A stretch of DNA of 64,000 bases from Lachnospiraceae bacterium (GTDB lineage: Bacteria; Bacillota; Clostridia; Lachnospirales; Lachnospiraceae), in NCBI GenBank assembly GCA_051888795.1, contig JBJFCD010000199.1, forward strand, positions 12,509 through 76,508, read 5' to 3'. The translations under genes were made by a program, and so were the position numbers. Positions within the stretch are counted from its first letter, which is position 1, and the number at the start of each line of letters is the position of its first letter. Shown here piece after piece: positions 5,053 to 23,975 of this stretch. The notes under the pieces were generated by a model. That model had not been told where the DNA came from, did no database searches, and saw only the letters and a list, made by a program, of their open reading frames with translations.

Positions 5053-5244
5053 GATGCCCTCCTGAGATAACCGGTTTGTTTTAAAATGTTAAGCTTTAAA
5101 ATGTTAAAGCAGCTTACTTCAAGTATGATAAAATAATTATAAAAAAACAGAGCATTATTTGCAATATATATGGCATTAATTGTATTGAAAAGGGAAATAA
5201 TGCCTGTTATGATTGCCTTAGATAAAGAAAGCGGAGGGTATGTT

Positions 5245-6102
5245 ATGAAGGTTGTTTTGGAAAGATATCATGGTTTAGGAAATGATTATGTTGTATTTGA
5301 TCCGAATAAAAATGAGCTTATGCTTACGCCGGGGAATGTTAAGATGATCTGTGACCGGAATGCCGGTCTTGGTTCGGATGGAGTTTTAGAAGGACCGATT
5401 TTAAAAGAAAACGGTATGTATGTTAAAGTATGGAATCCGGATGGCAGTATTTCAGAAACCAGCGGAAACGGTGTCCGCATCTTTGCAAAATATCTGAAAG
5501 ATGCAGGATATATTCAGAAAAAGAACTTCAAACTATTTACAGAAAACGGAGAAGTAGAGGTAACATTCCTGAATGAAGACGGAAGCAGACTCAGAGTTTC
5601 TATGGGTAAACTTTCTTTCTGGAGTGATGAGATTCCTGTAACAGGAGAGAGAAGAGAAGTAATTAATGAGGATATGGTGTTTGGAAGAACATTATATCCG
5701 GTAACATGTGTGACGATTGGAAATCCACATTGTGTTATTCCGATGAGAGAGATTTCAAAGCCTCTTGTTTGTAAAATAGGTGATTATGCAGAGATCGCGA
5801 GATATTTTCCGAATCGCGTAAATACGCAGATTATGAAAGTGATTGATAAAGAGAATATTGCAATTGAGATTTTTGAGCGTGGCGCAGGATATACTCTAGC
5901 TTCCGGAACAGGTGCCTGTGCAGCAGCAGGTGTTGCATATAAGCTTGGCATGACGAATAATAAAGTAATTGTTCACATGGCTGGCGGAAATCTTCAGGTA
6001 GAAGTGGAAGATGACTGGACTGTCTATATGACCGGAGATGTATTCTATGTAGCAAAACTTACGCTGAGTAATGAATTTGCAGAAAAACTGCGAAACGCAT
6101 AA
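5245..6102 (+). CDS. dapF: Diaminopimelate epimerase-like protein (both catalytic Cys replaced by Ser)
   Basis: YHGLGNDY, NPDGS..E.SGNG, GNPHCV, FP.RVN, ERGAG.TLASGTGACA; start at ATG 5245 after GGAGGG. Confidence 0.8.
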   Translation: MKVVLERYHGLGNDYVVFDPNKNELMLTPGNVKMICDRNAGLGSDGVLEGPILKENGMYVKVWNPDGSISETSGNGVRIFAKYLKDAGYIQKKNFKLFTENGEVEVTFLNEDGSRLRVSMGKLSFWSDEIPVTGERREVINEDMVFGRTLYPVTCVTIGNPHCVIPMREISKPLVCKIGDYAEIARYFPNRVNTQIMKVIDKENIAIEIFERGAGYTLASGTGACAAAGVAYKLGMTNNKVIVHMAGGNLQVEVEDDWTVYMTGDVFYVAKLTLSNEFAEKLRNA

Positions 6103-6165
6103 ATGTATAAATGGTTACAAGTTTATAAAGGGATATGATATACTAAGGCATAGGAGGAAAAACCT

Positions 6166-9100
6166 ATGCCTTTAAAATTTGTATTTGGACCATCGGGTTC
6201 AGGAAAATCACATTTTCTTTACAATTACATTATAGAAGTATCAGAAAAAAATCCGGATCAGAATTATATTATTCTTGTGCCGGAGCAGTTTACAATGCAG
6301 ACACAAAAAGATCTTGTCACGATGCATCCAAAACATGGGATCATGAATATTGATGTTCTGAGCTTCGGGCGTCTTGCTTATCGTGTCTTTGAGGAGACAG
6401 GAGGCGGCAATATACCGGTGCTGGATGATGAGGGAAAGAATCTGATACTGAGAAAGATTGCAGGAGACTATGAAGGAGAATTAAAGGTTCTCAAGGGCAA
6501 TATGAAAAAGCTCGGGTATATCAGTGAAGTGAAATCTGTAATCTCAGAATTTACCCAGTATGATATCGGACAGGAAGAGATAGAACGAGTAATGGAGATG
6601 GTTGGCAAAGAGTCGGGGCTCTACTACAAATTGAATGATTTAAAAATCCTGTATCGTGGATTTTCGGATTATCTTGAAAAAAAATATATTACTAAGGAAG
6701 AGCTTCTGGATGTTCTTGGAAGAGAAATAAAAAAGTCAGAGCTTTTAAAAAACAGTACTGTGGTATTGGACGGATTCACGGGATTTACACCGGTGCAGAA
6801 CAGGCTTTTAAAAGAACTTTTTATACATTGCCGTCAGGTAGTGGTAACCGTACTCATGGATGAAAGAGAAAATCCTTTCGTCTATAAACATCCCTATCAG
6901 CTTTTTGCATTAAGTAAACAGATGGTCACATCATTAACTGAAATTGCGAAAGAGACGGGAACTGTTCTTGAAGATGCAGAATATCTTTACGAAAATATTC
7001 CCTATCGTTTCAAAGAGAATCCGGCGCTTTCGTTTCTTGAGCATAATATTTTCCGATATGAAAAAGAAAGCTACGAATCCGAGCAGGATTCTATTTGTAT
7101 TCATGTGGCAAAAAATCCAAAAGAAGAAGCATTTGCCGTAGTCGGAGAAATTCGTGCTCTTGTGAGAAAAAGCGGATACCGGTATCGTGATATAGGACTG
7201 ATCGCAAGCAGTATGGATGCATATGGAGATTATCTGGAAGAGGCTTTTGAAAGTTACGGGATTCCAGTGTTTATGGACCACAAAAGGAGTATTCTTTTGA
7301 ATCCCTATGTAGAATATATCCGTAGTCTTCTGAATATGGTGGAACAGAATTTTACGTATGACAGTGTTTTCAGATTTCTTCATACGAATCTGTCGGGAAT
7401 TGCGTACGATGACGTTTGCTCTATGGAAAATTATGTTCTTGCTCTGGGGATAAAAGGATATAAAAAATGGCAGGAACGGTGGATTCGTCGCCCGCAGGAT
7501 ATGACGGAGGACGAGCTTGAAAACTTAAATCACTGTAGAGTAACATTTGTGGAAAAAATTGATGATCTGGTCTTTATTTTAAAACAGAGGAGAAAAACAG
7601 TCAGAGACATCACAGTAGCACTTTATGATTTTATTGTTAAGGAAGAATTTCAGTTAAAGCTAAAGCAGCAGGAAGAAGAGTTTCAGACCACAGGTGAACT
7701 TGCTCTTGCAAAAGAGTATGCGCAGATCTATCGAATACTGATAGAGTTGTTTGATAAATTTGTTGAGCTTCTGGGAGATGAACAGGTAGGGCTAAGTGAA
7801 TATTGCAAGCTATTGGATGCAGGTCTTTCGGAGGCAAGAGTCGGTGTGATTCCGCCCAGTGTGGATCAGGTAGTAGCCGGTGATGTTCAGAGGACCAGGC
7901 TGAAGGATATCAAAGTGCTGTTTTTTATCGGAGCAAATGACGTATATTTGCCGGGAACACTTCTTCGAACGGGGCTTTTGTCAGAGAGAGACCGGGAGAA
8001 ATTCCGAAAGGAAAAGCTTGCGCTTGCCCCAGGGGGAAAAGAACAGGCATACATTCAGAAGTTTTACCTTTATATGAATCTTACTAAGCCATCGGAATAT
8101 CTTCATGTGTATTACAGCAAGGTATCCTCAGATGGGAAAAGCATGCGCCCGGCATATCTGCTCCAGGAACTTCGGAAACTGTATCCGGCAATTCAGGTAA
8201 CGGATGAAGAAGAAAAGACATTATATCAGAGGGAACTGACTGAAAAAATGGGTATCAGTGAACTCGTTAAAATGGTACGTGACGATGATTGGAAAGAATT
8301 ATATTCCTGGTATCTGAAGCAGCCGGATTGGAAAGAAAAGGTAGAGAATCTTATTAAGGCGGGATACTATCGTCGTCCCATGGATGGTATGACAGAGAAT
8401 GTAGCAAGACGTCTATATGGCGAGGATTTCATGAATAGTATTACGAGAATGGAAAGATTTTCAGCCTGTGCTTTTGCGCATTTTCTTACGTATGGTCTGG
8501 GACTCAAGGAGCAGCCGGAATATGAATTCAAACCGGTAGATCTTGGAAATGTATGTCACAGAGCACTGGAGAGATATTCTGAAAAAATAGAAAAAGAAGA
8601 GCTGTCATGGACTGAAGTGCCGGAAGAAATGCAGAATCGCTGCATTGATGAGAGTGTGGATGAGGCAATTACCGATTATGGCAATAGTGTTCTTTACAGT
8701 TCTGCGCGCAGTGAGTACATGATTGTGAGGATAAAGCAGATGCTGAGACGTACAGTGTGGGCTCTGACAAAACAGTTGGCGGCAGGAGATTTTATACCAT
8801 CAGCATATGAGCTTCGCTTTGCAAGTGGAAAGATTGATCGTATTGATACTTGTGTGGATGAGGACAAGGTCTATGTAAAAGTTACAGATTATAAGACGGG
8901 AAGCAAGGAATTTGACGTTGTATCTTTGTATTATGGTCTTCAGTTGCAGCTTATGGTATATATGGATGCTGCGGTTAAGATTCAGGAAAAAAAGAATCCG
9001 GATAAGGAAGTGATTCCGGCCGGTGTATTTTATTATCGCATACAGGATCCCTTTGTGGAAAAACCGGAAAAAGAGCAGGGGGAAAAGGCAATTTCTGACG

Positions 9101-9507
9101 AGATTCTGTGCGCATTAAAACCGGACGGAATGGTGAATCTGAAGGATGAAGTGCTTGAACATCTGGACCATACAGCTGCAAGCGATTCAATTGCAGCTCC
9201 GATCAAATTTAATAAAAACGGAAGTCTTTCAAAGACTTCTAAAGCTGTCTCAGAAGATACATTCCGTGCGATGATGCAGCATGCGATGAAAAAAGTAGAA
9301 GAAGCTCATAAAGCAATTTTATCAGGAGACACAGCACCTCTCCCATATCGTAGAGGAACAGAGAGTGGGTGTGATTACTGTAAATACCGTCACGTTTGCG
9401 GATTTGATCTGAAAGTGCCGGGATATCATTATCGTGATCTTGGAAAGATGAGCAAGGAAGAAGCACTGACTAAGATGAGACAGGAAAATGAAGGAGGGGG
9501 ATCATAA
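6166..9507 (+). CDS. addB: ATP-dependent helicase/nuclease subunit B
   Basis: GPSGSGKS, VPEQFT, GKIDRID..DYKTG nuclease motif, Fe-S Cys (C..., CDYC, VC), LQLQLMVY. Confidence 0.95.
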   Translation: MPLKFVFGPSGSGKSHFLYNYIIEVSEKNPDQNYIILVPEQFTMQTQKDLVTMHPKHGIMNIDVLSFGRLAYRVFEETGGGNIPVLDDEGKNLILRKIAGDYEGELKVLKGNMKKLGYISEVKSVISEFTQYDIGQEEIERVMEMVGKESGLYYKLNDLKILYRGFSDYLEKKYITKEELLDVLGREIKKSELLKNSTVVLDGFTGFTPVQNRLLKELFIHCRQVVVTVLMDERENPFVYKHPYQLFALSKQMVTSLTEIAKETGTVLEDAEYLYENIPYRFKENPALSFLEHNIFRYEKESYESEQDSICIHVAKNPKEEAFAVVGEIRALVRKSGYRYRDIGLIASSMDAYGDYLEEAFESYGIPVFMDHKRSILLNPYVEYIRSLLNMVEQNFTYDSVFRFLHTNLSGIAYDDVCSMENYVLALGIKGYKKWQERWIRRPQDMTEDELENLNHCRVTFVEKIDDLVFILKQRRKTVRDITVALYDFIVKEEFQLKLKQQEEEFQTTGELALAKEYAQIYRILIELFDKFVELLGDEQVGLSEYCKLLDAGLSEARVGVIPPSVDQVVAGDVQRTRLKDIKVLFFIGANDVYLPGTLLRTGLLSERDREKFRKEKLALAPGGKEQAYIQKFYLYMNLTKPSEYLHVYYSKVSSDGKSMRPAYLLQELRKLYPAIQVTDEEEKTLYQRELTEKMGISELVKMVRDDDWKELYSWYLKQPDWKEKVENLIKAGYYRRPMDGMTENVARRLYGEDFMNSITRMERFSACAFAHFLTYGLGLKEQPEYEFKPVDLGNVCHRALERYSEKIEKEELSWTEVPEEMQNRCIDESVDEAITDYGNSVLYSSARSEYMIVRIKQMLRRTVWALTKQLAAGDFIPSAYELRFASGKIDRIDTCVDEDKVYVKVTDYKTGSKEFDVVSLYYGLQLQLMVYMDAAVKIQEKKNPDKEVIPAGVFYYRIQDPFVEKPEKEQGEKAISDEILCALKPDGMVNLKDEVLEHLDHTAASDSIAAPIKFNKNGSLSKTSKAVSEDTFRAMMQHAMKKVEEAHKAILSGDTAPLPYRRGTESGCDYCKYRHVCGFDLKVPGYHYRDLGKMSKEEALTKMRQENEGGGS

Positions 9508-12500: not shown

Positions 12501-13161
12501 ATTGAAAAAAAGAGCGTATCTTGAGGAGAGTCTTGGAAAGAATATGAGCGGTGATGCGGCCTTCGATGAACTGGGAGAAGTAATGTATGAAGAGCCGGAG
12601 GTGATGCCATTGCTGCCAAAGTTTTTACAGCAGGAAGAAGAACTGTCAGGAGCTTCCAGAGGTACTGCATATCATAGGGTAATGGAACTTCTGGATTTTA
12701 CAGAAAAGTATACAGAAGATAAACTGGAGAAAGAGCTGAAGCAGTTTTGCGATACAGGGAGACTGTCAGAAGAAGAATTGTCATGTATCTGTTCAGAAGA
12801 TATTTTAAAGTTTCTTGGATGTACGTCCGGAAAAAGGATGCACAAATGTGCTCTGGAAGGAAAGTTAAAGAAAGAACAGCCATTTGTTCTTGGAATGGAT
12901 GCAAGGGAAATATATCCGGATGAGGAAGAGGGAGAAATGATACTGATTCAGGGAATTATCGACATATTCTTCGAAGAGGAAGATGGACTGGTGGTGCTGG
13001 ATTACAAGACAGACAAAGTAACAAAAGCCGAAGAACTGGTAGAAAAATATCATGCACAGCTTGATTACTATGCAAAAGCGTTGGAGCAGATGACAGGAAA
13101 GAAAGTGAAAGAAAAGATCATTTATTCCTTTACACTGGAAAAAGAGATTATACTGAGTTAA
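9508..13161 (+). CDS. addA: ATP-dependent helicase/nuclease subunit A
   Basis: SAAAGSGKT, DEYQD, VGDVKQSIYRFR, TIHKSKGLEF, LYVALTRAKE, QGIID..DYKTD. Confidence 0.97.
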   Translation: MGVTWTSEQQKVIDLRGCNILVSAAAGSGKTAVLVERIITMLTDEIHPVSVDELLVVTFTEAAAAEMKERIRLAIEKKLLERPDDEHLRQQATLIHNAQITTIHSFCLSVVKDHFHAIDLDPGFRIGEEGELKLLKHDVLDEILEENYAEGEQDFLDFVSAYGSGRDDKKIEDLIFRIYDYSRSYPDAEGWLDSCVEAYSARTSEEFEKTKFSRLVMENVKALLSDAAEMIEDGLIICGMEDGPHVYENALQNDREMLDSFLAAETFSELSDYMQNVKWTRLAANRDKTVSEEKTEQVKVLREQAKELVGSISSQYFYQNMEELLQDMRVCKPKVKVLTGLVNQFAERFELKKREKELIDFSDMEQYALRILTQKTEEGFVPSVIAEEYSRQFTEIMIDEYQDSNLIQETILTSISRIPQGEYNIFMVGDVKQSIYRFRLSRPELFMEKYNTYRLDEGEKQRIDLHKNFRSRWEVLESINFLFRQMMTESLGGIAYDEKAALYPGADYPECEEGFSAATEVLMIDTQENEKDLKSSETFSKISEKELEASAIAGRIRELLRCHKVTDKKTGKLRPVKYSDIVILIRSTKGFSDTFTEVLSREGIPVFAGTSEGYFATQEIGVLLDYLRVLNNPKQDIPLAAVLTSAFCSLTEQELALIKNQFKELPFSQAVFAYGEEGEEDHIRKKIKDCLEQMEKFRKIVAYTPMHELLRKIMEDTGYEDLVSAMPGGEQRRANLLMLLEKAKAFESTSYKGLFHFVRYVEQLKKYDVDYGEAAIEDEKADTVRIMTIHKSKGLEFPIVFVAGMGKRFNMQDARSSVVLHSSLGIGLDAIDMEKRTKSPCIIKKVIQKEEALETLGEELRVLYVALTRAKEKLIITGTFSNLEKKLENCRMVTWQNMDELSFSRLSRAVTYWDFLLPALMRLDGEVPIEQKLLHVEDLVREAVEEEVTQKVKAQLSEQWDTQKVYSEKVRRMVEEQFSYEYPYGKSQSKKLKFTVSELKKRAYLEESLGKNMSGDAAFDELGEVMYEEPEVMPLLPKFLQQEEELSGASRGTAYHRVMELLDFTEKYTEDKLEKELKQFCDTGRLSEEELSCICSEDILKFLGCTSGKRMHKCALEGKLKKEQPFVLGMDAREIYPDEEEGEMILIQGIIDIFFEEEDGLVVLDYKTDKVTKAEELVEKYHAQLDYYAKALEQMTGKKVKEKIIYSFTLEKEIILS

Positions 13162-13251
13162 AGGGAGTGATTGGAAGTTTGCACTGTAATGTGTTTTGAT
13201 ATGGATGATTTATAATTTTATATGAACATAAAAAAATATTGGAGAAAAGTG

Positions 13252-13260
13252 TGCTATAAT
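13252..13260 (+). promoter_or_regulatory. Extended -10 promoter box
   Basis: TGCTATAAT about 30 bp upstream of the RBS/ATG at 13291. Confidence 0.55.
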
Positions 13261-13290
13261 GATTAAAAATTATTAATAATACGGAGGGTT

Positions 13291-14034
13291 ATGAAAATGA
13301 AGAGAAGAGGAATAAAAGGAATCTTTCTGGCACTGTTTGTTATTGTGGGAATGTCTTGTCTGCTTCCGGGAAATCAGGCTGAAGCAAAATCCAAGACGAA
13401 AGTGTCCTACAAAAAAGTAACTGAGACGAGAACATGGGAGGCAGATGATGGGACAATCTTAGTTAAGGCAACCTATAAAGGAATTAAGATTAAGGGAAGT
13501 TCATCAGCTGTCAAAAAAATGAACAAAGTTCTGGAAAAAGAAAAGAACCAGTTTTTTAAGACTGCAGCTGAGGCAAAAGAGAATGCACAAAGCGTATATG
13601 AGGATCAGACATATTATAATCCATTTTATGTATCAGAGTTTTATATTAGTTCGAAAGTTACTTTTAATAAAAAAGGTATCGTCAGCATTAAAGAAGTTTA
13701 TGACGGTTATCATAGCGGTGCTGCACATGGGTATTATTATACATATGGTCATACATTTAAAATCAGTTCCGGTAAAGAACTAAAGTTTAATCAGGTTGTG
13801 TCCGGATCAGATAAAACAGATAAGAAAAAGTTGGTTACAGCTTTCAAAAAAATGTATAATAAAGAACCAGACAAATATTTTGAAGATGCTATAGATACAG
13901 TAAGAAGTAGTAACGTGAAAAAACAGCAGTTTTATCTTTCGGGGAAATACGCGATTGCATGCTATGCACCATACAATTTGTCAAGTTTTGCTGAAGGAGA
14001 GACATTAGTGAAAGTGAAACACAGATATAATTAA
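13291..14034 (+). CDS. Secreted DUF4163/DUF3298 (RsiV/PdaC-N-like) protein
   Basis: Signal peptide ending AEA; GYHSGAAHG motif, TF..SGKEL, FY..PY..SSFAEG. Confidence 0.7.
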   Translation: MKMKRRGIKGIFLALFVIVGMSCLLPGNQAEAKSKTKVSYKKVTETRTWEADDGTILVKATYKGIKIKGSSSAVKKMNKVLEKEKNQFFKTAAEAKENAQSVYEDQTYYNPFYVSEFYISSKVTFNKKGIVSIKEVYDGYHSGAAHGYYYTYGHTFKISSGKELKFNQVVSGSDKTDKKKLVTAFKKMYNKEPDKYFEDAIDTVRSSNVKKQQFYLSGKYAIACYAPYNLSSFAEGETLVKVKHRYN

Positions 14035-14098
14035 AATAGTTATTACAGAGGATAACATTAGGAAAACCAATAAAAGAAAAATGTAACGGAGAAAATGA

Positions 14099-14815
14099 AT
14101 GTTGAATATTGTGATTTTTGATGATAATGAGAATGATATAAACATTACATACGATATTATTAATAAATATTTAAAAGATAAAAATAAAGCGGCGGAGATC
14201 CATACGTTTACCGGAAAAGAAGAGGTAATGAATTATATCAAAGAAGTAAGGACAGATGTTATTTTTTTGGATATTCTTGTGGATGATGAGGCTGTGGGAA
14301 TTGAGATGGCAAAGGAGATCAATAGCTTATCAGAGCATACATATATTGTGTTTTTGACAGGATTTCTTCATTATGCAACGGATATTTATGATACAAGACA
14401 TATCTATTATGTATTAAAGCCTGAGCTTACGCAGAGGCTTCCGGGAGTGTTTTCAAAAATTGAAAAAATCATGGATTCAGAAAATACCGGCATTTTTCAT
14501 GTAAAAAAAGGTGTCAATGATCTGATACTGGAAAAGAAAAAAATCAGTTATATAGAAAGGGATCGCAGAATCAGCATTATTCATTATGATGGTCAGACGT
14601 ATTCCGTGAATTATAAGATATCTGATCTTGTGGAAATGCTTGCGCATTCTGATTTTGTAAGATGTCATAATAGCTATATAGTAAATTTGCAGTACGTATC
14701 AAGGCTGGAGAGAAGATTTGTTTTATTAAAGGACGGAACACAGGTGCCAATCAGCAGATCGCGAAATGAGGAAGTAAAAAATCAATTTTTAGAATGGCTG
14801 CAAAAATATATGTAA
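14099..14815 (+). CDS. LytTR family response regulator (AgrA/VirR-like)
   Basis: Receiver DD, FLDI, FLTG, LKP intact; LytTR domain FVRCHNSYIVN..VPISRSR. Confidence 0.95.
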   Translation: MLNIVIFDDNENDINITYDIINKYLKDKNKAAEIHTFTGKEEVMNYIKEVRTDVIFLDILVDDEAVGIEMAKEINSLSEHTYIVFLTGFLHYATDIYDTRHIYYVLKPELTQRLPGVFSKIEKIMDSENTGIFHVKKGVNDLILEKKKISYIERDRRISIIHYDGQTYSVNYKISDLVEMLAHSDFVRCHNSYIVNLQYVSRLERRFVLLKDGTQVPISRSRNEEVKNQFLEWLQKYM

Positions 14816-14827
14816 TGGAGTAAGAAC

Positions 14828-15559
14828 ATGGGTGTTACGATTTGTCTGACTTTGGCAGGAATAGCATTGTTTATGATTGTTTATATAAAGATGCTTCAAA
14901 GAGAAAACAGGAATCTTATTTTACAGGAAAATCTCATAAGGGAGCATTATAGTACACTGGAATATCAAATTGAGCAAACGAGAAGAGTCAGACATGATAT
15001 TGCAAATCATATTTATACAATTGAGCAGCTTATGAAACAAAGCGAAGAAAAAGATACTTTGGCAAACAATTATAAAAATGATCTGGAAAAAACTTATCTG
15101 GTACTTCAGCAAAAAACGTTCTGTGAGGAAATACTCATTGATTCTGCGATCAAGAATAAACTCAGAGAATGCCAGCAAAAGCAGATTAAGACAGACTGTC
15201 AGGTGGAAAAATTGTCTATTGGTGATATTGAAAGAATTGATATGCTTGGGCTCATATATAATGTCTTTGATAATGCAATAGAAGCCTGTGAAAAAGTTGA
15301 GACAAATCGCAGATGGATTAGAGTAACGATAAAAAATGATGGAGCAAAGTTGTTTTTTTTATGCCATAACTCGAAAAATCCAAATTTTTCTCTGAAAGAT
15401 GGACAAAAAACTACAAAAAAGGATCAGGAAAATCATGGAATCGGAAAAGATATCATGAGAAGCATTGTAAAGAAATATCATGGAAGCATTCACGCAGAAG
15501 ATGGAAAAGAGGAATATAAACTGGAAATTGTGTGTAGGTGTAAGGATGAAAAAGTGTAG
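14828..15559 (+). CDS. GHKL histidine kinase (AgrC-type catalytic core) with only one TM helix
   Basis: H-box RHDIANH, N-box NVFDNAIEA, G-box TTK..NHGIG; only about 20 N-terminal hydrophobic residues. Confidence 0.9.
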   Translation: MGVTICLTLAGIALFMIVYIKMLQRENRNLILQENLIREHYSTLEYQIEQTRRVRHDIANHIYTIEQLMKQSEEKDTLANNYKNDLEKTYLVLQQKTFCEEILIDSAIKNKLRECQQKQIKTDCQVEKLSIGDIERIDMLGLIYNVFDNAIEACEKVETNRRWIRVTIKNDGAKLFFLCHNSKNPNFSLKDGQKTTKKDQENHGIGKDIMRSIVKKYHGSIHAEDGKEEYKLEIVCRCKDEKV

Positions 15560-15585
15560 AGAAAAATATATGGAGAATTTTAGAA

Positions 15586-16890
15586 ATGTTTGAAAGTGAT
15601 ATTACATGGATAGAGGCACTGTCACAGCTGTCTCTTACAGTCCCTGTTTATTTTCTTATGAAAAAAACAGTGGGATGTAAAAAAATATGGAAACAAATCC
15701 CATCCTGGTTTCTGCCTGCAATTCTTTATACACTCTGGAATATATATAACGTAATTGTTATTCGTTACCCTCAAATTCTTACAGATATTATATCGGAACA
15801 ATTGGCATATGAACTGCGGGCAGTCTGTGGGATTATATTAATGTTTGTAATTTTGCCAATGATTTATGAAGGAAGGACTCTTGAACGATATTTTTTCTGT
15901 TCATTATTAGAAATCATCTCTCTCTTTAGTGGATTGTTCAGATATGTGTGTATGATGTTATTTAAAATCAGCGGTTTATACTATGTAATGGAAAAAATGG
16001 TTTTTCTTCTTTTGCTTTTCCGTTTGTTCATTGAATGTGCCCCTTATTTTTTTTGCTATTACGTTTTCGAAAAGAATTTTGGAGATTATCGTGTCCTTGT
16101 AAATAAGCACAAAATAGCGTGTAGCGTACTGACAGTAATCATTATTTGTATGGAATCAGGCACTGCTTTTTTTTGCGTGGAAAGAAATTTTCTGGATATC
16201 TGGCGAGGAATTGGGGGAATGGCGTATCTGTTTTTCGTAATTGGAACAGTAATATTTATGTTAAAAAAAGATAATAGACAAATTTATCGGCAGAAGCAGT
16301 TGCTGGAAAATCATTATCAATCCATAAGGAACCAGGAAGAACAGGTAGTGAGCATGCAGTCGGAGATTGGCGAGCTTCTTAAGGCTGCAGAGAAACTTGA
16401 AAAAGAGAAAAAATACAGTGAAGAAGAGTTAAAACACTATGGAGAAGAGTTAAAGAAGTTACACAGTAAACTAAGGCGTGTAGATTACTGTGATAACCTT
16501 ATGCTGGATGCGGTGTTACATAATAAAGAAAAGGAATGTGAAGAGAAAAATATAAAGCTGGATATAAGAATGCAGGATATAAGCTTTGGGGGAGTTTCAG
16601 ATGTAGATATCTTTGAAGTTGTATATGGAATGCTTGAAGTTGCCATAGATCTAGTTGAGATGCAGGAAGATAAAGCTTTGAAGACTATTGTGATCAGCGG
16701 AAAGAATCTGGCAGGGCAAGTGGTGATAGAGGTGTCAATTCCATCTATTGCCTCTAAAAATGGAAAAGTCTTGAGGAAAAGCAGGAATCAATATAAAAGG
16801 CTGAAACGAAAAGCAAAAGTGCTGAGAGGACAGAGTGTTATATGCACTGATAAAGATTATCAGAAGATTGTTTTGGGAATTCCGTGTTGA
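15586..16890 (+). CDS. Multi-TM AgrC-like pseudo-histidine kinase, paralog 1
   Basis: Hydrophobic N-terminal half; LLENHYQSI coiled coil, YCDNLMLDAVLHNKEKEC; no RHD H-box, no N-box Asn, no HGxG. Confidence 0.75.
   Translation: MFESDITWIEALSQLSLTVPVYFLMKKTVGCKKIWKQIPSWFLPAILYTLWNIYNVIVIRYPQILTDIISEQLAYELRAVCGIILMFVILPMIYEGRTLERYFFCSLLEIISLFSGLFRYVCMMLFKISGLYYVMEKMVFLLLLFRLFIECAPYFFCYYVFEKNFGDYRVLVNKHKIACSVLTVIIICMESGTAFFCVERNFLDIWRGIGGMAYLFFVIGTVIFMLKKDNRQIYRQKQLLENHYQSIRNQEEQVVSMQSEIGELLKAAEKLEKEKKYSEEELKHYGEELKKLHSKLRRVDYCDNLMLDAVLHNKEKECEEKNIKLDIRMQDISFGGVSDVDIFEVVYGMLEVAIDLVEMQEDKALKTIVISGKNLAGQVVIEVSIPSIASKNGKVLRKSRNQYKRLKRKAKVLRGQSVICTDKDYQKIVLGIPC
16333..16747 (+). repeat. Direct repeat copy 1 (415 bp, identical by eye to 17712-18126 and 19056-19470)
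   Basis: Line-by-line visual comparison; offset 1379 to copy 2. Confidence 0.9.
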
Positions 16891-16961
16891 TAATTTGAAT
16901 ATTTATGTGATTCAATGTTAACTGAAGAGGAGATGTAAAAGGTGCAGGAGGGTTGTTTGGA

Positions 16962-18284
16962 ATGTTAAGTCAGCCTGATACGAAACTATTAGAAGCACTG
17001 GCACAGGTATTTCTTGTAGTCCCGCTTGTGTTTACAACAGAAAAGACAGTTGGATATAGAAAAATATGGAATCATATACCAACTTGGTTTCTGGCAGGAT
17101 TTATATATTCTATTTGGAATATATATAATGCATTGGTATTATATTATCCCAGGTATATTACAAAAATGATTACGGAAGAGGCTATGCATTTAAGTTGGGC
17201 ACTTGGTGGATTGGTAATGATGTTTGTGATATTGCCCTCCCTTTATAAAGGAACGATAATTGAACGGTATTTTGTCTTTTTTGTATTTGCTTTGACAGAT
17301 TTTTTTGCCAGACTTTTCAGGATGCTTGGTATGGTGATTTTGGAAAAATTCGGATTGTGGTATGTCATACAGAAAGATTGGTTTTTCTTGCTTTTTATTC
17401 GTTTGGTTTTGCAGTCTGGACCATATTTTTTGTTTTATTTCATTTTTAGAAAACAATTTGCAAAATATCATGATTGGGTCATAAAGCATAAAAAATTATG
17501 CAGTGCAGCAACGATATTAGTTGTTGGACTGGAAATCTCGACAGCACTTATGTCAATAGATGCAGAACATTTAGAAAAGCTAAGGTTATTCATAAATCCG
17601 GCAGTTTTGTTTGGAACATTTATGGGGGCAATTTATTTTTTGAAAAGAGAAAATCGTCAAGTTTATCTACAGAAACAACTGCTGGAAAATCATTATCAAT
17701 CCATAAAGAGTCAGGAAGAACAGGTAGTGAGCATGCAGTCGGAGATTGGCGAGCTTCTTAAGGCTGCAGAGAAACTTGAAAAAGAGAAAAAATACAGTGA
17801 AGAAGAGTTAAAACACTATGGAGAAGAGTTAAAGAAGTTACACAGTAAACTAAGGCGTGTAGATTACTGTGATAACCTTATGCTGGATGCGGTGTTACAT
17901 AATAAAGAAAAGGAATGTGAAGAGAAAAATATAAAGCTGGATATAAGAATGCAGGATATAAGCTTTGGGGGAGTTTCAGATGTAGATATCTTTGAAGTTG
18001 TATATGGAATGCTTGAAGTTGCCATAGATCTAGTTGAGATGCAGGAAGATAAAGCTTTGAAGACTATTGTGATCAGCGGAAAGAATCTGGCAGGGCAAGT
18101 GGTGATAGAGGTGTCAATTCCATCTAATACTCATATAAGTGGGAAAGACATAAAGGAAAGCAGGAATCAATATAAGAGGCTGAAACGAAAAGTAAAAGTG
18201 CTGAGAGGACAATGTATACGGAAGATAGAAGGAGAAACGGAAAAGATTGTTGTGGGCATAATGTGCGGCAGTGCAGGCAGATAG
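16962..18284 (+). CDS. Multi-TM AgrC-like pseudo-histidine kinase, paralog 2
   Basis: Same architecture as paralog 1; ATG 16962 after GGAGGG (ORF track starts at TTG 16953). Confidence 0.75.
   Translation: MLSQPDTKLLEALAQVFLVVPLVFTTEKTVGYRKIWNHIPTWFLAGFIYSIWNIYNALVLYYPRYITKMITEEAMHLSWALGGLVMMFVILPSLYKGTIIERYFVFFVFALTDFFARLFRMLGMVILEKFGLWYVIQKDWFFLLFIRLVLQSGPYFLFYFIFRKQFAKYHDWVIKHKKLCSAATILVVGLEISTALMSIDAEHLEKLRLFINPAVLFGTFMGAIYFLKRENRQVYLQKQLLENHYQSIKSQEEQVVSMQSEIGELLKAAEKLEKEKKYSEEELKHYGEELKKLHSKLRRVDYCDNLMLDAVLHNKEKECEEKNIKLDIRMQDISFGGVSDVDIFEVVYGMLEVAIDLVEMQEDKALKTIVISGKNLAGQVVIEVSIPSNTHISGKDIKESRNQYKRLKRKVKVLRGQCIRKIEGETEKIVVGIMCGSAGR
17662..18253 (+). repeat. Direct repeat copy 2 (592 bp, identical by eye to 19006-19597)
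   Basis: Visual comparison; constant offset 1344; translations identical. Confidence 0.9.
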
Positions 18285-18308
18285 TATATGCGAGGGAGAA
18301 TAAGGAAG

Positions 18309-19688
18309 ATGTTCGAGAGTGATGTTACGTGGATAGAAACAATAATAAGATTATCCGCTGTAGTTCCTTTTTGTTTTTTTACCGAAAAATCAGTAGGTTA
18401 CCGAAAAATATGGAAACGGATGCCATCATGGCTTCCGACATCAATTCTTTACTTTATATGGAGTATATATAATGAGTTAATCTTGTCTTATCCGCAGTTT
18501 GTTTGTAATTTTGTCTCAGAGACAGTAGCATATAAAATCTGGGCGGTCGGTGGACTAATGTTAATGTTAGTGATTTTTCCATGGTTTTATAAAGGTTCAA
18601 TCATAGAGAAATATTTTGTTTGTTTTGTGATAGAAGTGATTTCAATTTTTTGTTATCTTTGCAGAGGCGTCGGCATGCTTTTTGTTAAAAGCATTAGATT
18701 GTATAATATTTTTGAAAAAACTGTTTTTTCATTATTTTTTTTACGATTGGTTTTAGAATATATGCCGTGTTTTCTATGCTATTTTATTTTTAAAAAACAG
18801 TTTAAAAATTACCATACTTATGTTTGGAAACATAAAAAGGTATGTTGTGTGGCAGCAATATTTACTGTCGGAGCAGAGACAGTTACTGCGCTTGTTACGA
18901 TAAGTAAAGATTTCTTAGAAAACTGGAGAGCGATCGCAAACCCTATTATCCTTTTTGGAGCAATTGGAATTACAATTTATCTGTTAAAAAGAGAGAATGA
19001 AAGGATTTATCTACAGAAACAACTGCTGGAAAATCATTATCAATCCATAAAGAGTCAGGAAGAACAGGTAGTGAGCATGCAGTCGGAGATTGGCGAGCTT
19101 CTTAAGGCTGCAGAGAAACTTGAAAAAGAGAAAAAATACAGTGAAGAAGAGTTAAAACACTATGGAGAAGAGTTAAAGAAGTTACACAGTAAACTAAGGC
19201 GTGTAGATTACTGTGATAACCTTATGCTGGATGCGGTGTTACATAATAAAGAAAAGGAATGTGAAGAGAAAAATATAAAGCTGGATATAAGAATGCAGGA
19301 TATAAGCTTTGGGGGAGTTTCAGATGTAGATATCTTTGAAGTTGTATATGGAATGCTTGAAGTTGCCATAGATCTAGTTGAGATGCAGGAAGATAAAGCT
19401 TTGAAGACTATTGTGATCAGCGGAAAGAATCTGGCAGGGCAAGTGGTGATAGAGGTGTCAATTCCATCTAATACTCATATAAGTGGGAAAGACATAAAGG
19501 AAAGCAGGAATCAATATAAGAGGCTGAAACGAAAAGTAAAAGTGCTGAGAGGACAATGTATACGGAAGATAGAAGGAGAAACGGAAAAGATTGTTGTTGG
19601 ACTTACATGTTTTTGTGGAAATTATGAGCAAAATGAGGATGATTATGATAAAATGGTCAGTAAAGGAACAGCTTGTGATAAACGCTAG
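18309..19688 (+). CDS. Multi-TM AgrC-like pseudo-histidine kinase, paralog 3
   Basis: Same architecture; MFESD start at 18309 matches paralog 1 (ORF track starts at 18288). Confidence 0.75.
   Translation: MFESDVTWIETIIRLSAVVPFCFFTEKSVGYRKIWKRMPSWLPTSILYFIWSIYNELILSYPQFVCNFVSETVAYKIWAVGGLMLMLVIFPWFYKGSIIEKYFVCFVIEVISIFCYLCRGVGMLFVKSIRLYNIFEKTVFSLFFLRLVLEYMPCFLCYFIFKKQFKNYHTYVWKHKKVCCVAAIFTVGAETVTALVTISKDFLENWRAIANPIILFGAIGITIYLLKRENERIYLQKQLLENHYQSIKSQEEQVVSMQSEIGELLKAAEKLEKEKKYSEEELKHYGEELKKLHSKLRRVDYCDNLMLDAVLHNKEKECEEKNIKLDIRMQDISFGGVSDVDIFEVVYGMLEVAIDLVEMQEDKALKTIVISGKNLAGQVVIEVSIPSNTHISGKDIKESRNQYKRLKRKVKVLRGQCIRKIEGETEKIVVGLTCFCGNYEQNEDDYDKMVSKGTACDKR
19006..19597 (+). repeat. Direct repeat copy 3
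   Basis: Matches 17662-18253. Confidence 0.9.
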
Positions 19689-19717
19689 ATAATGATTTAA
19701 ACACCGGAGGAAATGAT

Positions 19718-21127
19718 ATGCAGTATATTTCAAAAGGATATTTTATGTGGGTGACATTATTCATACCACTGTATTTTGAAAATGCATATTTTAATATGCT
19801 TCAGGCAAAAGGGCATATTTATATTGTTGGCGCGGCGCTTTATTTGTTAAGCATTGCTTTTTTGTGTGTGATAAAAAAGAGTGTGAAGGATTGTCTCCCT
19901 GGTAAGAGCGTGTTAGACTGGAGCGTTTTTCTCCTGGGGATTACAGCGCTTCTTTCCTGCCTGTTGTCGGAAGATATGAAGGCTTCTTTTTGGGGCAGTA
20001 ATGGATGGTGGGTTGGAGCATTTGTGTTTTTGACTTTTGCCCTTTTTTATCAGGTTCTATCTAAAAATCTGCAATTAAATCAGAATATATGGCTTCCGGT
20101 GTTGATCGTAAATATGTTTATTTTTGTCATGGGAATATTGCATTCTGCACGAATTGATGTTTTATCTTTGCATGAAAATATATATCCAAAGCAGTATTAC
20201 TGGTATATATCTACAATTGGAAATACGAATTGGTATGTAGGGTATCTTTGTCTTATAATTCCTTTGGTACTTGTATTTTACCTTGAATGTGAGGATGTGT
20301 TTTCACGGAGAATCTATTTTGTGTTTCTGGCGTTAGCATGTATCAATATTGTGTTATGTGGGAGCGACGGAATTTATTTGGGATTTGGGATCTGCGCTTT
20401 TTTTTCTATTCCGTATATTGTTGCTGAGGAAAAAAGAGTGTGCAGAATGTTCGAAGTACTTATCTGTTATGGAGGCGGATTACTGCTTGTAAGGTTCTGC
20501 CCGGTCTTTGCGGGGAAGTTGGCTGATATAGAAGGATTGTCAAAAATATTTCTCAGACCTGCATTTTCAATTACGCTTGTTCTTGTATCGTTATGCGGAA
20601 GGATTCTTGCAAAAAAAAGATGGGGAAAACTGGATAAAAAATGTAAGAATGCAGTAACTGCTATCTTGGAAATGATGCTAGGTGTCTGTGCAGCGGTTTT
20701 CCTTTTTCGGGCAATTTGTAATTTTGGAGAAAGTTGGGGAACAAACCGAGGAAGAACATGGAAATATTGTGCAGAGTTATTTCAGACGTTTTCTGTAAAG
20801 CAAAAGTTGTTTGGAGTTGGTCCGGAGATGCTGAAAACATATTTTGAAGAGCTTTCGACACATTTTTCCAGACAGATCCTTGTAGCCCACAGTGAACTGA
20901 TGCAGCTTCTAATGACAATAGGGGTGCTGGGATTGTTATGCTGGCTCTTAATGTGGGGAAGCGTTGTAGGCAGTTATTTTAAAAATAAAATCTGGAAAAA
21001 AGGAAACATTGCATTTTTACTGCCACTAATTGCTTATCTGGGACAGTCACTGGTGAACAGTCCGCAGACTACAAATGTGGCGCTGCTATGTGTTCTTATG
21101 GCGTGTTACAGAAAAAGTGAAATATAG
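19718..21127 (+). CDS. O-antigen ligase / O-oligosaccharyltransferase-like membrane protein (Wzy_C type)
   Basis: About 12 TM helices; STIGNTNW, GTNRGRTW, FGVGP, AHSELMQLLMTIG motifs typical of the family. Confidence 0.7.
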   Translation: MQYISKGYFMWVTLFIPLYFENAYFNMLQAKGHIYIVGAALYLLSIAFLCVIKKSVKDCLPGKSVLDWSVFLLGITALLSCLLSEDMKASFWGSNGWWVGAFVFLTFALFYQVLSKNLQLNQNIWLPVLIVNMFIFVMGILHSARIDVLSLHENIYPKQYYWYISTIGNTNWYVGYLCLIIPLVLVFYLECEDVFSRRIYFVFLALACINIVLCGSDGIYLGFGICAFFSIPYIVAEEKRVCRMFEVLICYGGGLLLVRFCPVFAGKLADIEGLSKIFLRPAFSITLVLVSLCGRILAKKRWGKLDKKCKNAVTAILEMMLGVCAAVFLFRAICNFGESWGTNRGRTWKYCAELFQTFSVKQKLFGVGPEMLKTYFEELSTHFSRQILVAHSELMQLLMTIGVLGLLCWLLMWGSVVGSYFKNKIWKKGNIAFLLPLIAYLGQSLVNSPQTTNVALLCVLMACYRKSEI

Positions 21128-21186
21128 AGCCAGATTAGTGGGGAACACGTTTGGAATTTTATATAAATAAAAATCAGATAATTATG

Positions 21187-21217
21187 TCGGGGTGGATTTT
21201 GTCCACCTCGATTTTTT
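21187..21217 (+). terminator. Type-A hairpin, probable intrinsic terminator
   Basis: TCGGGGTGGA-TTTTG-TCCACCTCGA followed by a T-run. Confidence 0.7.
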
Positions 21218-21224
21218 GTCTTTC

Positions 21225-21294
21225 GTGCAAATTGTGACAAAAATGAGGTTGATTTTGCAGGAGTGATCAGTAATGAAATATTTTGTGATAAACT
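21225..21294 (+). promoter_or_regulatory. Promoter P1: putative LytTR direct repeat plus extended -10
   Basis: CAAATTGTG-12-TTGATTTTG, 31 bp gap, then TGA-TAAACT. Confidence 0.65.
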
Positions 21295-21335
21295 CAGAAT
21301 AAAGAAAACGGTAAATCTCAAAGGAGGAAAAAGGA

Positions 21336-23975
21336 ATGAAGTTTGATTTTGAAAAATCAAGATTTTCTATTAAGAAAGCAATAGTCGGATTATTAGCTTT
21401 CGTTCTGATTGCAGGGCAATCAGGGATTACATCAATGGCAGATTGGGTTGATGTTGATGGAGATGAAAGTTATAGTGAAGGAGATATTTCCGGAAATGCA
21501 TATGTTGACTGGGAGAAACGTGAAAAAAAAGCTATGCCAGGCGATAGTTGTACATTCGAAGTATCTCAAGAGGATATTGTGCTGGAAAAATATGTAAAAG
21601 ATGAAGAAGGATGGGCAGACTGGGAAAAATTTTCCGATGAAGACTGGGAAAATGTAGAACTGCAGTATCAATGGTATAAGATTAATTGGGATGAGGAGAC
21701 TGAAGAGGAGATTTATGAAAAAATATCTGGCGCGACAGAAGCATCTTACACCATTTATGATATTAAAGCAGAAGATTTTCAAGGTGAGTTTGAATGTGAA
21801 ATTTCGGTTAAATATGGTACAGATGAATCTCAAACAGCAATTGTTGATCGTTCACACTTTTGGCTGGTGCCAGATATCGGTTTTGAAGGTGTAGATGAAG
21901 ATAATGAATGCTATAAGAAAATATATACCCAGAATAAATCCGGGGTGCTTAATGTTGATGCAAAATGCACTAATGAAAAAGCAACACTTGAATATAAGTG
22001 GTATGTAGACGGTGAGGAGATTTCAGGAGCTACTTCTAATAGCTGTGAATTTAAAATAGAAGATGGTTCGTATTCGAAATCTTATGAATGTGTCGTTAAG
22101 GCAACCGTGGATGGTGTATCGAGAAGGTGTTATTATTGGTTTGACATTTACCGATATGATAATATGGGGAAATTTGCTGAAAATTCAATTATGAATGTTT
22201 CACTTCCGGGAGGGGCGCGTTATGGATATACTTTTACCCCTAGTCAGACTGATGAGTATTTTTTCTATTCGATTTCTGAAAAATCAGATACAGGAGTATA
22301 TCCTGATCCATATGCAAATTTAATTGATTCTGATGGAAATCCTGTAAAAATTCTTAAAGGTGATACGGATGATGCGAACGCTCTGGATTTCAAATTTAAA
22401 GTGGCATTAGAGGCAAATAAGACATATACATTACTTCTGAAGGCATTTAATAGTGTCGATGTAACATTTGCCGTTAAGAATGATACAGGTGAGTCTGATT
22501 TCTCTGTGACGAGTAGTTATAAAACAATTTATACGCAAGATAAAACAGGAACACTTTCTGCTAATATAAAATGTACTAACGAGAACGCAAATTTTGAGTA
22601 TCAATGGTATGAATATGTATACCATGAAGATACAGGGATTGAAGGGTTAGAAAAAATAGAAGGCGCAACATCAAAAGCTTATGAGTATAGTTTTAGTGAT
22701 GGAGAATACAATAAATATGTAAAATGTGATGTGAAAGTTACTGTAAATGGTATCTCAGAATCAACTACGGGAGAATTTAATGTATACAGATATGAAAATA
22801 AGGGCACATTTTCTGAAGATTCCAGTATGGAAATAACAGCTCCGCAGGGAACAAGTGATGGTCGCCCGGTATGCTATGGATATACCTTTACGCCTAGTCA
22901 GACAGCGGAATATACATTCTCCTCAACATCTAATAATATATCCTTAGAAGCAGCAGTACTGAATTCCAAAGGAAATAATGTTATTGGAAATGATTTCGAT
23001 TATGAATCATGGAATGATACTTGGGATGATGAAGACTGGGATGATGAAGACTGGGATGACGAAGACTGGGATGATGAAGACTGGGAAGAAGGAGATTGGG
23101 ATGATGATTTTCAGTTAAAATCAGTGCTGGTAGCAAATAAGACATATACTTTTGTTGTTTGTATTTGGAATGGTAATACTGAGAATACATTTACGGTTAC
23201 AAATACAATGGGAGACACAGTAGAGTGCCCGCATGCTGATACTTCTTTAATCGATGCAAAAGAAGCCACCTATTTTGAAGAAGGTTACACAGGAGATATC
23301 TATTGTAATGATTGTGAAACTATCATTGAAAAAGGTCAGGTAATTGCGAAAAAAGAATGTGCACATACAAACACATCTGTAGTTGATAAAAAGACGGCTA
23401 CTTGTCTGAAAGAAGGTTATACAGGAGATACTTATTGTAATGATTGTGAGACTGTGATTAAGAAAGGCGAAAAAATTGCCAAGATTCCTGCAACGATTTC
23501 TCTGAACGTAAAGGGAACAATTCCGTTGAAGGTAAAACAGTCTACAACAGCAGTGAGGGTTTCCTATGGACCTGGAGATGGTATTGCGTCATGGAAGTCC
23601 AGCAATACGAAGATTGCAACCGTTTCCTCAAAAGGAAAAATCACCGGTAAGAAAGCCGGAACAGCGAAGATTACGGTTGTGCTGAAGAGCGGAAAGAGTA
23701 AATCCTTTAATGTTAAGGTACAGAAAAAAGAAGTTGCTACGACAAAGGTTACGGTTAATTCAAAGAATGTAGTATTGAAAAAGGGTGGAAAATTCACAGT
23801 AAAAACTACGCTGGCACCGATTACTTCTGTTCAGAAAGTGAAGTATACATCCAGCAATAAGAAAGTGGCAACAGTATCTTCCAAGGGTGTAATTACTGCT
23901 AAGAAAAAAGGAACAGCAAAGATCACTGTAACATCCGGTAAGAAGAAAGTGACAATCAAAGTGACAGTGAAATAA
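21336..23975 (+). CDS. Secreted/surface protein A: two 202-aa repeats, acidic WDDED tract, two Cys/His repeats, C-terminal Big_2 Ig-like domains
   Basis: Signal peptide; repeats K.IYTQ.K.G...KCTNE offset 606 bp; C.H...EGYTGD.YCNDC x2; WKSSNTKIATVSSKGKITGKKAGTAKITV. Confidence 0.8.
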   Translation: MKFDFEKSRFSIKKAIVGLLAFVLIAGQSGITSMADWVDVDGDESYSEGDISGNAYVDWEKREKKAMPGDSCTFEVSQEDIVLEKYVKDEEGWADWEKFSDEDWENVELQYQWYKINWDEETEEEIYEKISGATEASYTIYDIKAEDFQGEFECEISVKYGTDESQTAIVDRSHFWLVPDIGFEGVDEDNECYKKIYTQNKSGVLNVDAKCTNEKATLEYKWYVDGEEISGATSNSCEFKIEDGSYSKSYECVVKATVDGVSRRCYYWFDIYRYDNMGKFAENSIMNVSLPGGARYGYTFTPSQTDEYFFYSISEKSDTGVYPDPYANLIDSDGNPVKILKGDTDDANALDFKFKVALEANKTYTLLLKAFNSVDVTFAVKNDTGESDFSVTSSYKTIYTQDKTGTLSANIKCTNENANFEYQWYEYVYHEDTGIEGLEKIEGATSKAYEYSFSDGEYNKYVKCDVKVTVNGISESTTGEFNVYRYENKGTFSEDSSMEITAPQGTSDGRPVCYGYTFTPSQTAEYTFSSTSNNISLEAAVLNSKGNNVIGNDFDYESWNDTWDDEDWDDEDWDDEDWDDEDWEEGDWDDDFQLKSVLVANKTYTFVVCIWNGNTENTFTVTNTMGDTVECPHADTSLIDAKEATYFEEGYTGDIYCNDCETIIEKGQVIAKKECAHTNTSVVDKKTATCLKEGYTGDTYCNDCETVIKKGEKIAKIPATISLNVKGTIPLKVKQSTTAVRVSYGPGDGIASWKSSNTKIATVSSKGKITGKKAGTAKITVVLKSGKSKSFNVKVQKKEVATTKVTVNSKNVVLKKGGKFTVKTTLAPITSVQKVKYTSSNKKVATVSSKGVITAKKKGTAKITVTSGKKKVTIKVTVK
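23022..23108 (+). repeat. In-frame 15-bp tandem repeat TGGGATGAYGAAGAC (WDDED) x4 plus degenerate copies
   Basis: Seen directly. Confidence 0.95.

Follow-up and report, generated by a model that had tools for sequence, protein, structure and literature searches.

How is signalling organised where a histidine kinase that lacks a sensor is encoded beside three sensor proteins that lack a working kinase domain? This question is raised by a 64,000-nucleotide stretch of DNA from a Lachnospiraceae bacterium (contig JBJFCD010000199.1 of assembly GCA_051888795.1, positions 12,509 to 76,508 of the forward strand), which in its whole length is referred to here as the window. A single putative operon in it contains one gene for a LytTR-type response regulator and genes for two paralogous types of kinase-like membrane protein, namely a short histidine kinase, K, and three long pseudokinases, P1–P3. 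Judged by its motifs, K alone in this system can bind ATP, carry the phosphate and hand it to the regulator. The genes concerned are as follows (DHp, dimerisation and histidine phosphotransfer; CA, catalytic and ATP-binding):

14099..14815, + strand: response regulator of 238 residues with receiver and LytTR DNA-binding domains (Pfam LytTR, E = 2.1e-18; Response_reg, E = 1.1e-9)
14828..15559, + strand: K, short catalytic histidine kinase of 243 residues (Pfam HATPase_c_5, E = 6.7e-17)
15586..16890, + strand: P1, 434 residues, seven-helix sensor followed by a catalytically dead DHp/CA-like half
16962..18284, + strand: P2, second sensor pseudokinase, 440 residues from the ATG at 16962 (the gene call and the likelier start) or 443 residues from the TTG at 16953
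18309..19688, + strand: P3, third sensor pseudokinase, 459 residues from the ATG at 18309 (likelier) or 466 residues from the ATG at 18288

Only one hydrophobic segment is present in K (residues 2–20), and the polytopic sensor of five to seven helices is absent from its chain. The regulator gene ends at 14815, 12 nucleotides upstream, and thus leaves no space for a lost sensor exon. The His box RVRHDIANH occupies residues 53–61 with H56 as the histidine (nucleotides 14984–15010), the N box FDNAIEA residues 147–153 with N149 (nucleotides 15266–15286), and the G box NHGIGKD residues 202–208 with HGIG at 203–206 (nucleotides 15431–15451). The match to HATPase_c_5 scores 61.7 bits against a cut-off of 22. 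K orthologues in three related loci (L010, L012 and L013, described below) share 66–81% identity, and the His, the Asn and the G-box glycines are invariant among them. The phosphatase motif H-E/D-x-x-N/T, as defined in PMC3591291, is present in K as HDIAN, and because this motif is retained K probably also acts as a phosphatase. A PDB sequence search with K alone returned nothing significant. The possibility that K is a fragment of a split gene was rejected, since K lies upstream of P and has its own membrane helix and start codon; it is also contradicted by P1–P3, which keep a full kinase-shaped half of their own.

Each of P1–P3 contains about six to seven hydrophobic segments within its first ~230 residues. 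Their alignment with K starts at the last membrane helix and, by way of a coiled coil (QKQLLENHYQSI) and a YCDNLMLDAVLHNK segment, runs to the C-terminus. At the His box, where K reads RVRHDIANH, P1–P3 read SMQSEIGELL with Ser in place of His (nucleotides 16351–16380 in P1); at the N box, where K reads YNVFDNAIEA, they read YGMLEVAIDL with Val in place of Asn (nucleotides 16624–16653 in P1); and nothing is found at the HGxG position. Pfam and NCBIfam scans of P1–P3 gave no family match, HATPase_c_5 included, and a PDB sequence search with the P profile gave no significant match. However, comparison of the K-orthologue profile with the P-orthologue profile by hhalign yielded a probability of 99.4% and an E value of 3.9e-21 over 209 columns. 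On this profile alignment K and P are true homologues, and the likeness is far beyond chance. With canonical long kinases, the alignment of the P profile extends over the membrane region too.

An AlphaFold model of P2 was built from a nine-sequence alignment and has a mean predicted local distance difference test (pLDDT) score of 71. In the model, the cytoplasmic half forms a long helical hairpin and then an alpha/beta sandwich. A Foldseek search with this model led to histidine-kinase cores, among them DesK (E = 1.4e-5) and the cytoplasmic module of AgrC (6e95/6e52), and the comparison with the AgrC ATP-binding domain (4bxi) resulted in a TM-score of 0.72 and a root-mean-square deviation of 3.7 Å. 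P orthologues at 42–56% identity have non-catalytic residues at all three motifs, and the His position in P1–P3 and these orthologues is occupied by Ser, Leu or Asp. In place of the His box, many distant P members have a recurrent QxxIDxQ motif. The acidic C-terminal tail of P3 is also present in the single P of L010.

An earlier note on this DNA had described K as a kinase with intact His, N and G boxes on a membrane anchor of only about 20 residues, and P1–P3 as sharing a coiled coil and a CDNLMLDAVL-type segment with it and as dead at the catalytic positions. The coordinates and alignments given above agree with the earlier note on each of these points, and the hidden Markov model scan that it had proposed separates K from P1–P3. 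The sensors had also been called AgrC-like. That description holds only in the broad sense of the HPK10 group: AgrB (PF04647) has no match in the whole 90%-complete source genome, and the equivalog models score low (AgrC, 15.6 bits against a cut-off of 500; AgrA, 41.9 bits against a cut-off of 400). Membership in an agr-type peptide system was rejected on these grounds. No small precursor-peptide gene was seen in the open reading frame list for 13161–21336.

The three P copies are mosaics. Their sensor halves are 39–46% identical in protein and 58–60% identical in DNA, with a saturated dS of 1.3–2.5 and a dN of about 0.4–0.5 (synonymous and nonsynonymous substitutions per site, respectively), whereas the 152 codons that follow are 98.7–100% identical in DNA. 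The switch from divergence to identity sits at the junction between the last membrane helix and the coiled coil. The longest exact run common to all three copies is 415 nucleotides (16333–16747, 17712–18126 and 19056–19470, + strand) and spans the region coding for the DHp-like and CA-like parts. P2 and P3 share an identical run of 592 nucleotides (17662–18253 and 19006–19597, + strand), over which dS is 0. The longest-exact-run search, the DNA alignment and the repeat families all support the mosaic. The sensor-half tree groups P1 with the P proteins of L010 (69% identity) and L011 (52%), and P2 with that of L012, whereas the cytoplasmic halves of P1–P3 cluster together in their own tree. Because the two trees disagree, the sensors must predate the array and the cytoplasmic halves must have been homogenised within the genome, a pattern that indicates gene conversion, or else recurrent recombination in the conserved half.

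The combination of K and P also occurs elsewhere. Thirteen loci hold a LytTR response regulator (RR) with a short intact kinase and one to six long pseudokinases: the window, contig C142 of the same genome, L010, L012, L013, G038, G051, contig C64 of G036, G256, L093/L094, L095/L096, L099 and L100. Three gene orders are seen among them, RR-K-P (for example G038 and L099), P-RR-K (G051 and contig 64 of G036) and RR-P-K (G256). The source genome is a metagenome-assembled genome (MAG) of 295 contigs, and its contig C142 encodes a regulator, an intact kinase of 242 residues and a pseudokinase of 440 residues that are only about 25% identical to the proteins of the window. Three orthologous loci have a single P: L010 and L012, from two public assemblies, and L013, from a Lachnospiraceae MAG. 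L010 is syntenic with the window from AddA onward. Arrays of P behind one K occur in L095/L096 (an ENA contig), where RR-K is followed by six P genes, two of these split; in L100, arranged RR-K-P-P, with two or more; and in L093/L094 (a Clostridia MAG), with two, where RR-K is followed by a fragmented P and then by P.

Trees of the regulator, K and P are congruent and contain the same two clades. The pairwise identities of K and P are correlated with r = 0.96, and P evolves fastest. Together, the congruent trees and the correlated identities argue that the K–P pair is old and has been inherited as a unit. K accompanies P in 13 of the 14 P loci examined, the exception being L011. The earlier note had named a strain-specific truncation of K as the finding that would overturn its reading; with 13 loci, three gene orders and congruent trees, this origin of the short kinase is excluded.

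Several observations were made alongside in these loci. On contig C142, no open frame of at least 100 residues is listed for the 4.3 kb that follow the second pseudokinase gene (L008 7700–12001). The short-kinase frame on contig C64 of G036 (L046 3046–3588), where the order is P-RR-K, stops at 180 residues, ahead of the G box, which may be a frameshift or a real truncation. L093/L094 has, between K and P, a further P copy that is split over three frames, and a 693-residue Ser/Thr protein kinase follows P (7108–9189). The split P genes of L095 (3440–12912; ENA ERZ21549410 contig_1829) consist of pieces of 43 + 273 and 52 + 387 residues, and after the array come the gene of a radical-SAM/SPASM enzyme and some small open frames; the signal of this relative could be a modified peptide. 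The L099 trio (3136–8943; Logan SRR19939431) lies directly upstream of a type VII secretion locus with an FtsK/SpoIIIE ATPase containing an FHA domain and a WXG100 protein. L011 (380–1700; Logan ERR11553347) is an orphan P orthologue with neither K nor regulator; its MF..D.TW start is cut by a TAG, its frame begins 14 codons later, and it is probably a relic. On the minus strand of contig C285 of the source genome (G000 20845–21162; about 4845–5162 of L009), a frame of 121 residues with an internal TAG lies between a MerR-like gene and a 616-residue gene. It has weak similarity (E = 2.6e-7) to the cytoplasmic half of P and may be a decayed P fragment.

At E values up to 0.001, 613 of 1.84 billion cluster representatives matched in a profile search. 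The best 150 of these 613 clusters include 48 long proteins that lack all three motifs, 37 long proteins that are fully intact and 16 short ones that are fully intact, besides smaller groups with partial motif sets. Where P-type members are named by NCBI, the name is 'hypothetical protein', from Lachnospiraceae or Clostridia MAGs. When 400 genomes across the class were searched with a broad P profile, the 29 best loci outside the source family all proved to be canonical kinases with every motif intact, and a pattern-based scan of species-representative genomes returned a single close P orthologue only. Searches of the literature for AgrC-type or LytTR-linked pseudokinases yielded nothing on a short/long K–P family.

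Relatives of the trio distribute the same motifs differently between a short and a long chain. Four partitions were found, each beside a LytTR regulator:

Window type, 13 loci: short chain with His, N and G boxes intact; long chain with none of the three
First complementary type, L091: short chain with the His only (RFRHDLANH; no Asn, no G box); long chain with the ATP site only (QFRDEILDY; DNAIEG; HGLG)
First complementary type, genes directly adjacent, L092 module 2: short chain of 228 residues with the His only; long chain of 450 residues with the ATP site only
Reverse of the window, L092 module 1: short chain of 253 residues with no motifs; long chain of 473 residues, fully intact
Second complementary type, L097 541–3630 and L098 4208–7062: short chain with the ATP site only; long chain with the His only

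The two regulator modules of L092 (2025–7689; Logan SRR8986148) adjoin one another, and in module 2 the gene of the long protein precedes that of the short one. L091 joins contigs C35 and C14 of G036, which are contiguous in a public contig of a near-identical strain; a search for an overlap of the C35 and C14 ends within G036 found no join. Its regulator, short chain and long chain form the sister group of the window clade in all three trees. In the complementary types neither chain can autophosphorylate alone, so the ATP site of one must reach the His of the other, and by their motifs the short and long chains of these relatives must act together. Such relatives, together with the co-inheritance of K and P, lend indirect support to a contact between the chains, and that from the relatives is the strongest. 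Since the different partitions arise inside one related group of trios, the association of short and long chains is most simply ancestral to the group, the window branch included. By the same motifs, the family of unannotated K–P trios also holds natural complementary split kinases and receptor arrays.

The closest known system is FasBCA of group A Streptococcus. FasB and FasC form heterodimers and no homodimers in two-hybrid assays; FasB can dispense with its membrane domain and FasC with its kinase domain, H246 of FasC is required, FasC is proposed by the authors to be a pseudokinase, and the regulator is ComE-like (PMC12675982). The premise of the earlier note that kinases of this kind carry sensor and catalysis on one chain is, since that study (PMC12675982), outdated as a universal rule. 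Like the window, the Fas operon combines two HPK10-like membrane paralogues with one regulator of the LytTR/ComE type, and in it one chain is catalytic without need of its membrane domain while the other senses without need of its kinase domain. The systems differ in that FasB and FasC are both full-length six-helix proteins, whereas the catalytic chain of the window physically lacks a sensor. In addition, phosphate passes via H246 of FasC, whereas P1–P3 have neither the His nor the ATP site, so that all chemistry would stay on K. Finally, the window has three sensor chains with homogenised cytoplasmic halves; FasB and FasC were compared by description only. L097 and L098, with an ATP-site-only short chain and a His-only long chain, closely match the Fas model, in which the required His is on the sensor chain.

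Other systems resemble the window in part. The pseudokinase RocA co-precipitates with CovS and enhances it, and needs neither its own His nor its CA domain (PMC7028121). Like P, RocA is a membrane protein with a dead kinase half; it has six helices, and it modulates a real kinase in the membrane. Unlike P, it is encoded away from covRS and forms no arrays, and it is not a paralogue of CovS, which has its own sensor, belongs to another kinase family and works with an OmpR-type regulator. RetS of Pseudomonas aeruginosa is reported to bind the DHp domain of its partner GacS and to disturb the homodimer (PMC8498467), and thus offers a model for an inhibitory P; this pair differs from the window in kinase family and hybrid architecture, in the catalytic motifs that RetS keeps, in unlinked genes and in a non-LytTR output. 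In Rhodobacter sphaeroides the ATP-binding and phosphorylatable parts of a kinase lie on two complexed proteins, CheA3 and CheA4 (PMC3591291). L091, module 2 of L092, L097 and L098 similarly split the His from the ATP site by motif. However, K of the window keeps both, so that the split there is between sensing and catalysis, and the chains of the window family each keep a full, partly dead kinase core. The AgrC/AgrA, ComD/ComE and PlnB-type systems share the HATPase_c_5 core, the polytopic sensor and the LytTR regulator, whereas their sensor and catalysis are on one homodimeric chain and their peptide and maturation genes are adjacent. In agr groups, too, a variable sensor half is joined to a conserved cytoplasmic half, and the promoter repeats have a 9-12-9 layout. 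In chemoreceptor–CheA arrays many non-catalytic transmembrane receptors feed one sensor-less histidine kinase. That likeness is a functional analogy of many inputs and one output; the folds and the coupling by CheW are unrelated, and chemoreceptors are not paralogues of their kinase.

Set beside these systems, the window would encode a three-component phosphorelay of HPK10/LytTR type, Fas- and RocA-like, but with sensing and catalysis hard-wired into separate paralogous chains, a sensor-less kinase and its pseudokinase receptors. K would autophosphorylate on H56 and pass the phosphate to the LytTR regulator, all phosphoryl chemistry remaining on K. P1–P3 would be non-catalytic receptors, each combining a distinct seven-helix sensor with a nearly identical kinase-shaped module, and the contact of P with K would be made by the last membrane helix common to both and by the DHp-like hairpin. 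The ligand state of the P sensor would then set how K balances its kinase against its phosphatase activity, such that several inputs would converge on one kinase and one regulator and, probably, on the downstream surface-protein genes. The sensors would diverge, with gene conversion preserving the identity of the docking module among the receptors. That P1–P3 are ligand-sensing, non-catalytic partners that dock on K and set its kinase/phosphatase balance is regarded as the probable reading of the locus. It is favoured by the conserved kinase-shaped module of P and its homogenisation among the copies, by the retention in K of exactly the membrane helix and coiled coil common to P, and by the co-inheritance of a trio whose relatives must be heteromers.

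The sign of the control is a closer call, and the analogies lean slightly towards a K that is kinase-silent when bound by P. Phosphorylation is in trans both in the Fas model and in the complementary relatives; should the same geometry apply here, the ATP site and the His would not be productively paired in a K:P heterodimer. K would then fire only as a K:K dimer, and P would act as a ligand-controlled sequestering partner in the manner of RetS. RocA, on the other hand, is an example of a partner that enhances its kinase. The earlier note had proposed that interchangeable receptors heterodimerise with one catalytic subunit or act as inhibitory decoys. This reading gains support from the conserved and co-inherited unit, the P arrays, the complementary relatives and the Fas precedent, and its two further elements, the contact between the chains and the sign of its effect, stay proposals.

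Several points weigh against control of K by P. The complementary relatives and FasBCA pass phosphate via the partner chain, whereas P here lacks the His; the analogy therefore supports contact between the chains and not the same chemistry. The confidence of the P2 model is moderate, and low (pLDDT 50–62) in the DHp-like helices. The 100% identity of the cytoplasmic halves rests on a single metagenome-assembled contig. P-type proteins occur in 5 of the 401 sampled genera of the source family, and one genome of the same genus is without the locus; such patchy occurrence points to an accessory system. Moreover, K has all that is needed to work alone, and P could be dispensable for signalling.

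Alternatively, P might signal without the chemistry of K. Its dead domain would make direct contact with the regulator or with some other partner, much as DivK~P is read by DivL, and K would be an independent, constitutive or cytoplasm-sensing kinase that shares only the operon. P is conserved without a single catalytic residue, as such a role would allow, and the sensor-less short pseudokinase beside a complete long kinase in module 1 of L092 argues that the dead domain has a role besides sensing. Pseudokinases that read the state of a regulator are known (PMC4211667). However, an independent P would not account for the 13 of 14 P loci in which K and P occur together and co-diverge, for the retention in K of just the segments it has in common with P, or for the chain-to-chain contact needed by the complementary relatives. 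This alternative is considered unlikely.

Less probable still, metagenome assembly or polishing could have produced both the triplication and the perfectly identical 3' halves as an artefact, the true state being a single P or less similar copies. The source genome is a MAG in 295 pieces, exact repeats of 415–592 nucleotides at a spacing of 1.3–1.4 kb are difficult for short reads, and one P each is found at the orthologous loci, L010, L012 and L013. Against this, the three sensor halves are distinct genes, 39–46% identical, that group with different orthologues, and the ends of the conversion tract differ between P1 and P2/P3, with six base differences in P1 immediately 5' of the 415-nucleotide run. 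An independent array shows the same step: the six tandem P genes of L095/L096 (of which one record bears the name tig00004642) have sensor halves that are 17–42% identical, while the cytoplasmic halves of the last three copies are 71–75% identical in protein and 81–100% identical in DNA windows, and L100 has two copies. The same mosaic in an independent array counts against an artefact, which in any case would leave the K-plus-P architecture untouched. Finally, it is very improbable that P1–P3 are functionless, decaying duplicates of a former full-length kinase, as the missing catalytic residues and the fragmented copies in L093, L095 and L011 might suggest, given the intact frames in homologues down to 15–18% identity, the many invariant positions in sensor and cytoplasmic halves alike, a dN well under dS in the sensor halves, the dozens of clusters of proteins of the same length and the recurrence of QxxIDxQ at the former His box in many distant members.

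The locus is flanked by an AddA helicase gene on one side and by a run of very large surface-protein genes on the other. The following features lie next to the genes already listed:

13291..14034, + strand: PdaC/DUF3298-like secreted protein (weak Pfam PdaC and DUF3298 matches; the same place in L010)
19718..21127, + strand: polytopic Wzy_C-like (O-antigen ligase-like) membrane protein (Pfam Wzy_C, E = 5.7e-7, slightly below the cut-off)
21186..21212, + strand: intrinsic-terminator-like hairpin with a 12-pair stem followed by a T run
21228..21257, + strand: candidate LytTR box, CAAATTGTG, 12-nucleotide spacer, TTGATTTTG, with a TGn -10 element after it

The PdaC/DUF3298-like gene, the regulator, K, P1–P3 and the Wzy-like gene are all on the + strand. 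The Wzy-like gene begins 30 nucleotides past P3, and no terminator-like site was found before 21186. As the hairpin at 21186–21212 is the sole strong terminator-like structure along this run of genes, the regulator, K, P1–P3 and the Wzy-like gene probably share one transcript, with the Wzy-like gene last in the operon. An acidic pocket of D8, D9 and D58 was read by eye in the regulator, and a LytTR regulator adjoins K and P in every related locus.

The candidate output of the system lies in the same region. Four intergenic regions before large surface-protein genes each contain CAAATTGTG, a 12-nucleotide spacer, a second related 9-mer and a TGn -10 element. These near-identical promoter modules, identified by exact 9-mer matches and an alignment of the four regions, begin at 21228, 28157, 29588 and 37827; an extra 9-mer match at 24069 falls inside a gene start. 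A 9-12-9 direct-repeat layout is typical of AgrA/ComE-type LytTR sites. The surface-protein genes behind promoters of the 21228 type are probably the output of the regulator. No such 9-12-9 site was found ahead of the regulator operon itself.

Beyond the window, it is tentatively suggested, as a possibility somewhat short of even odds, that short/long paralogue pairs beside LytTR regulators make up a family of histidine kinases that is naturally heteromeric and has gone unrecognised, so far known mostly from gut Firmicutes of the Lachnospiraceae type, with a plug-in receptor system in the window branch. After a duplication, four functions (sensor, His, ATP site and docking) would have been partitioned in at least four ways. 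In the window branch interchangeable pseudokinase receptors of different ligand specificities would compete for one catalytic subunit, gene conversion would preserve the identity of the plug they share, and by recombining, the identical blocks would let the receptor set grow, shrink or be reshuffled. If true, chemoreceptor arrays would have here a counterpart at the level of the kinase.

The usual picture of a histidine kinase is a homodimer with sensing and catalysis on the same chain; natural heteromers are rare and have been studied singly, as with RetS–GacS, RocA–CovS and, in 2025, FasB–FasC. The division of labour in the present family can be read from its motifs and leads to predictions on autophosphorylation in cis or in trans, on the control of a live domain by a dead one and on receptors that share a kinase. 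The abrupt step from diverged sensor to converted cytoplasmic half would mark the specificity and docking surfaces and may be useful for the engineering of chimeric receptors. Dozens of putative receptors of gut bacteria have been missed by domain databases, some of which have genes for surface proteins, a radical-SAM gene or a type VII secretion locus as neighbours.

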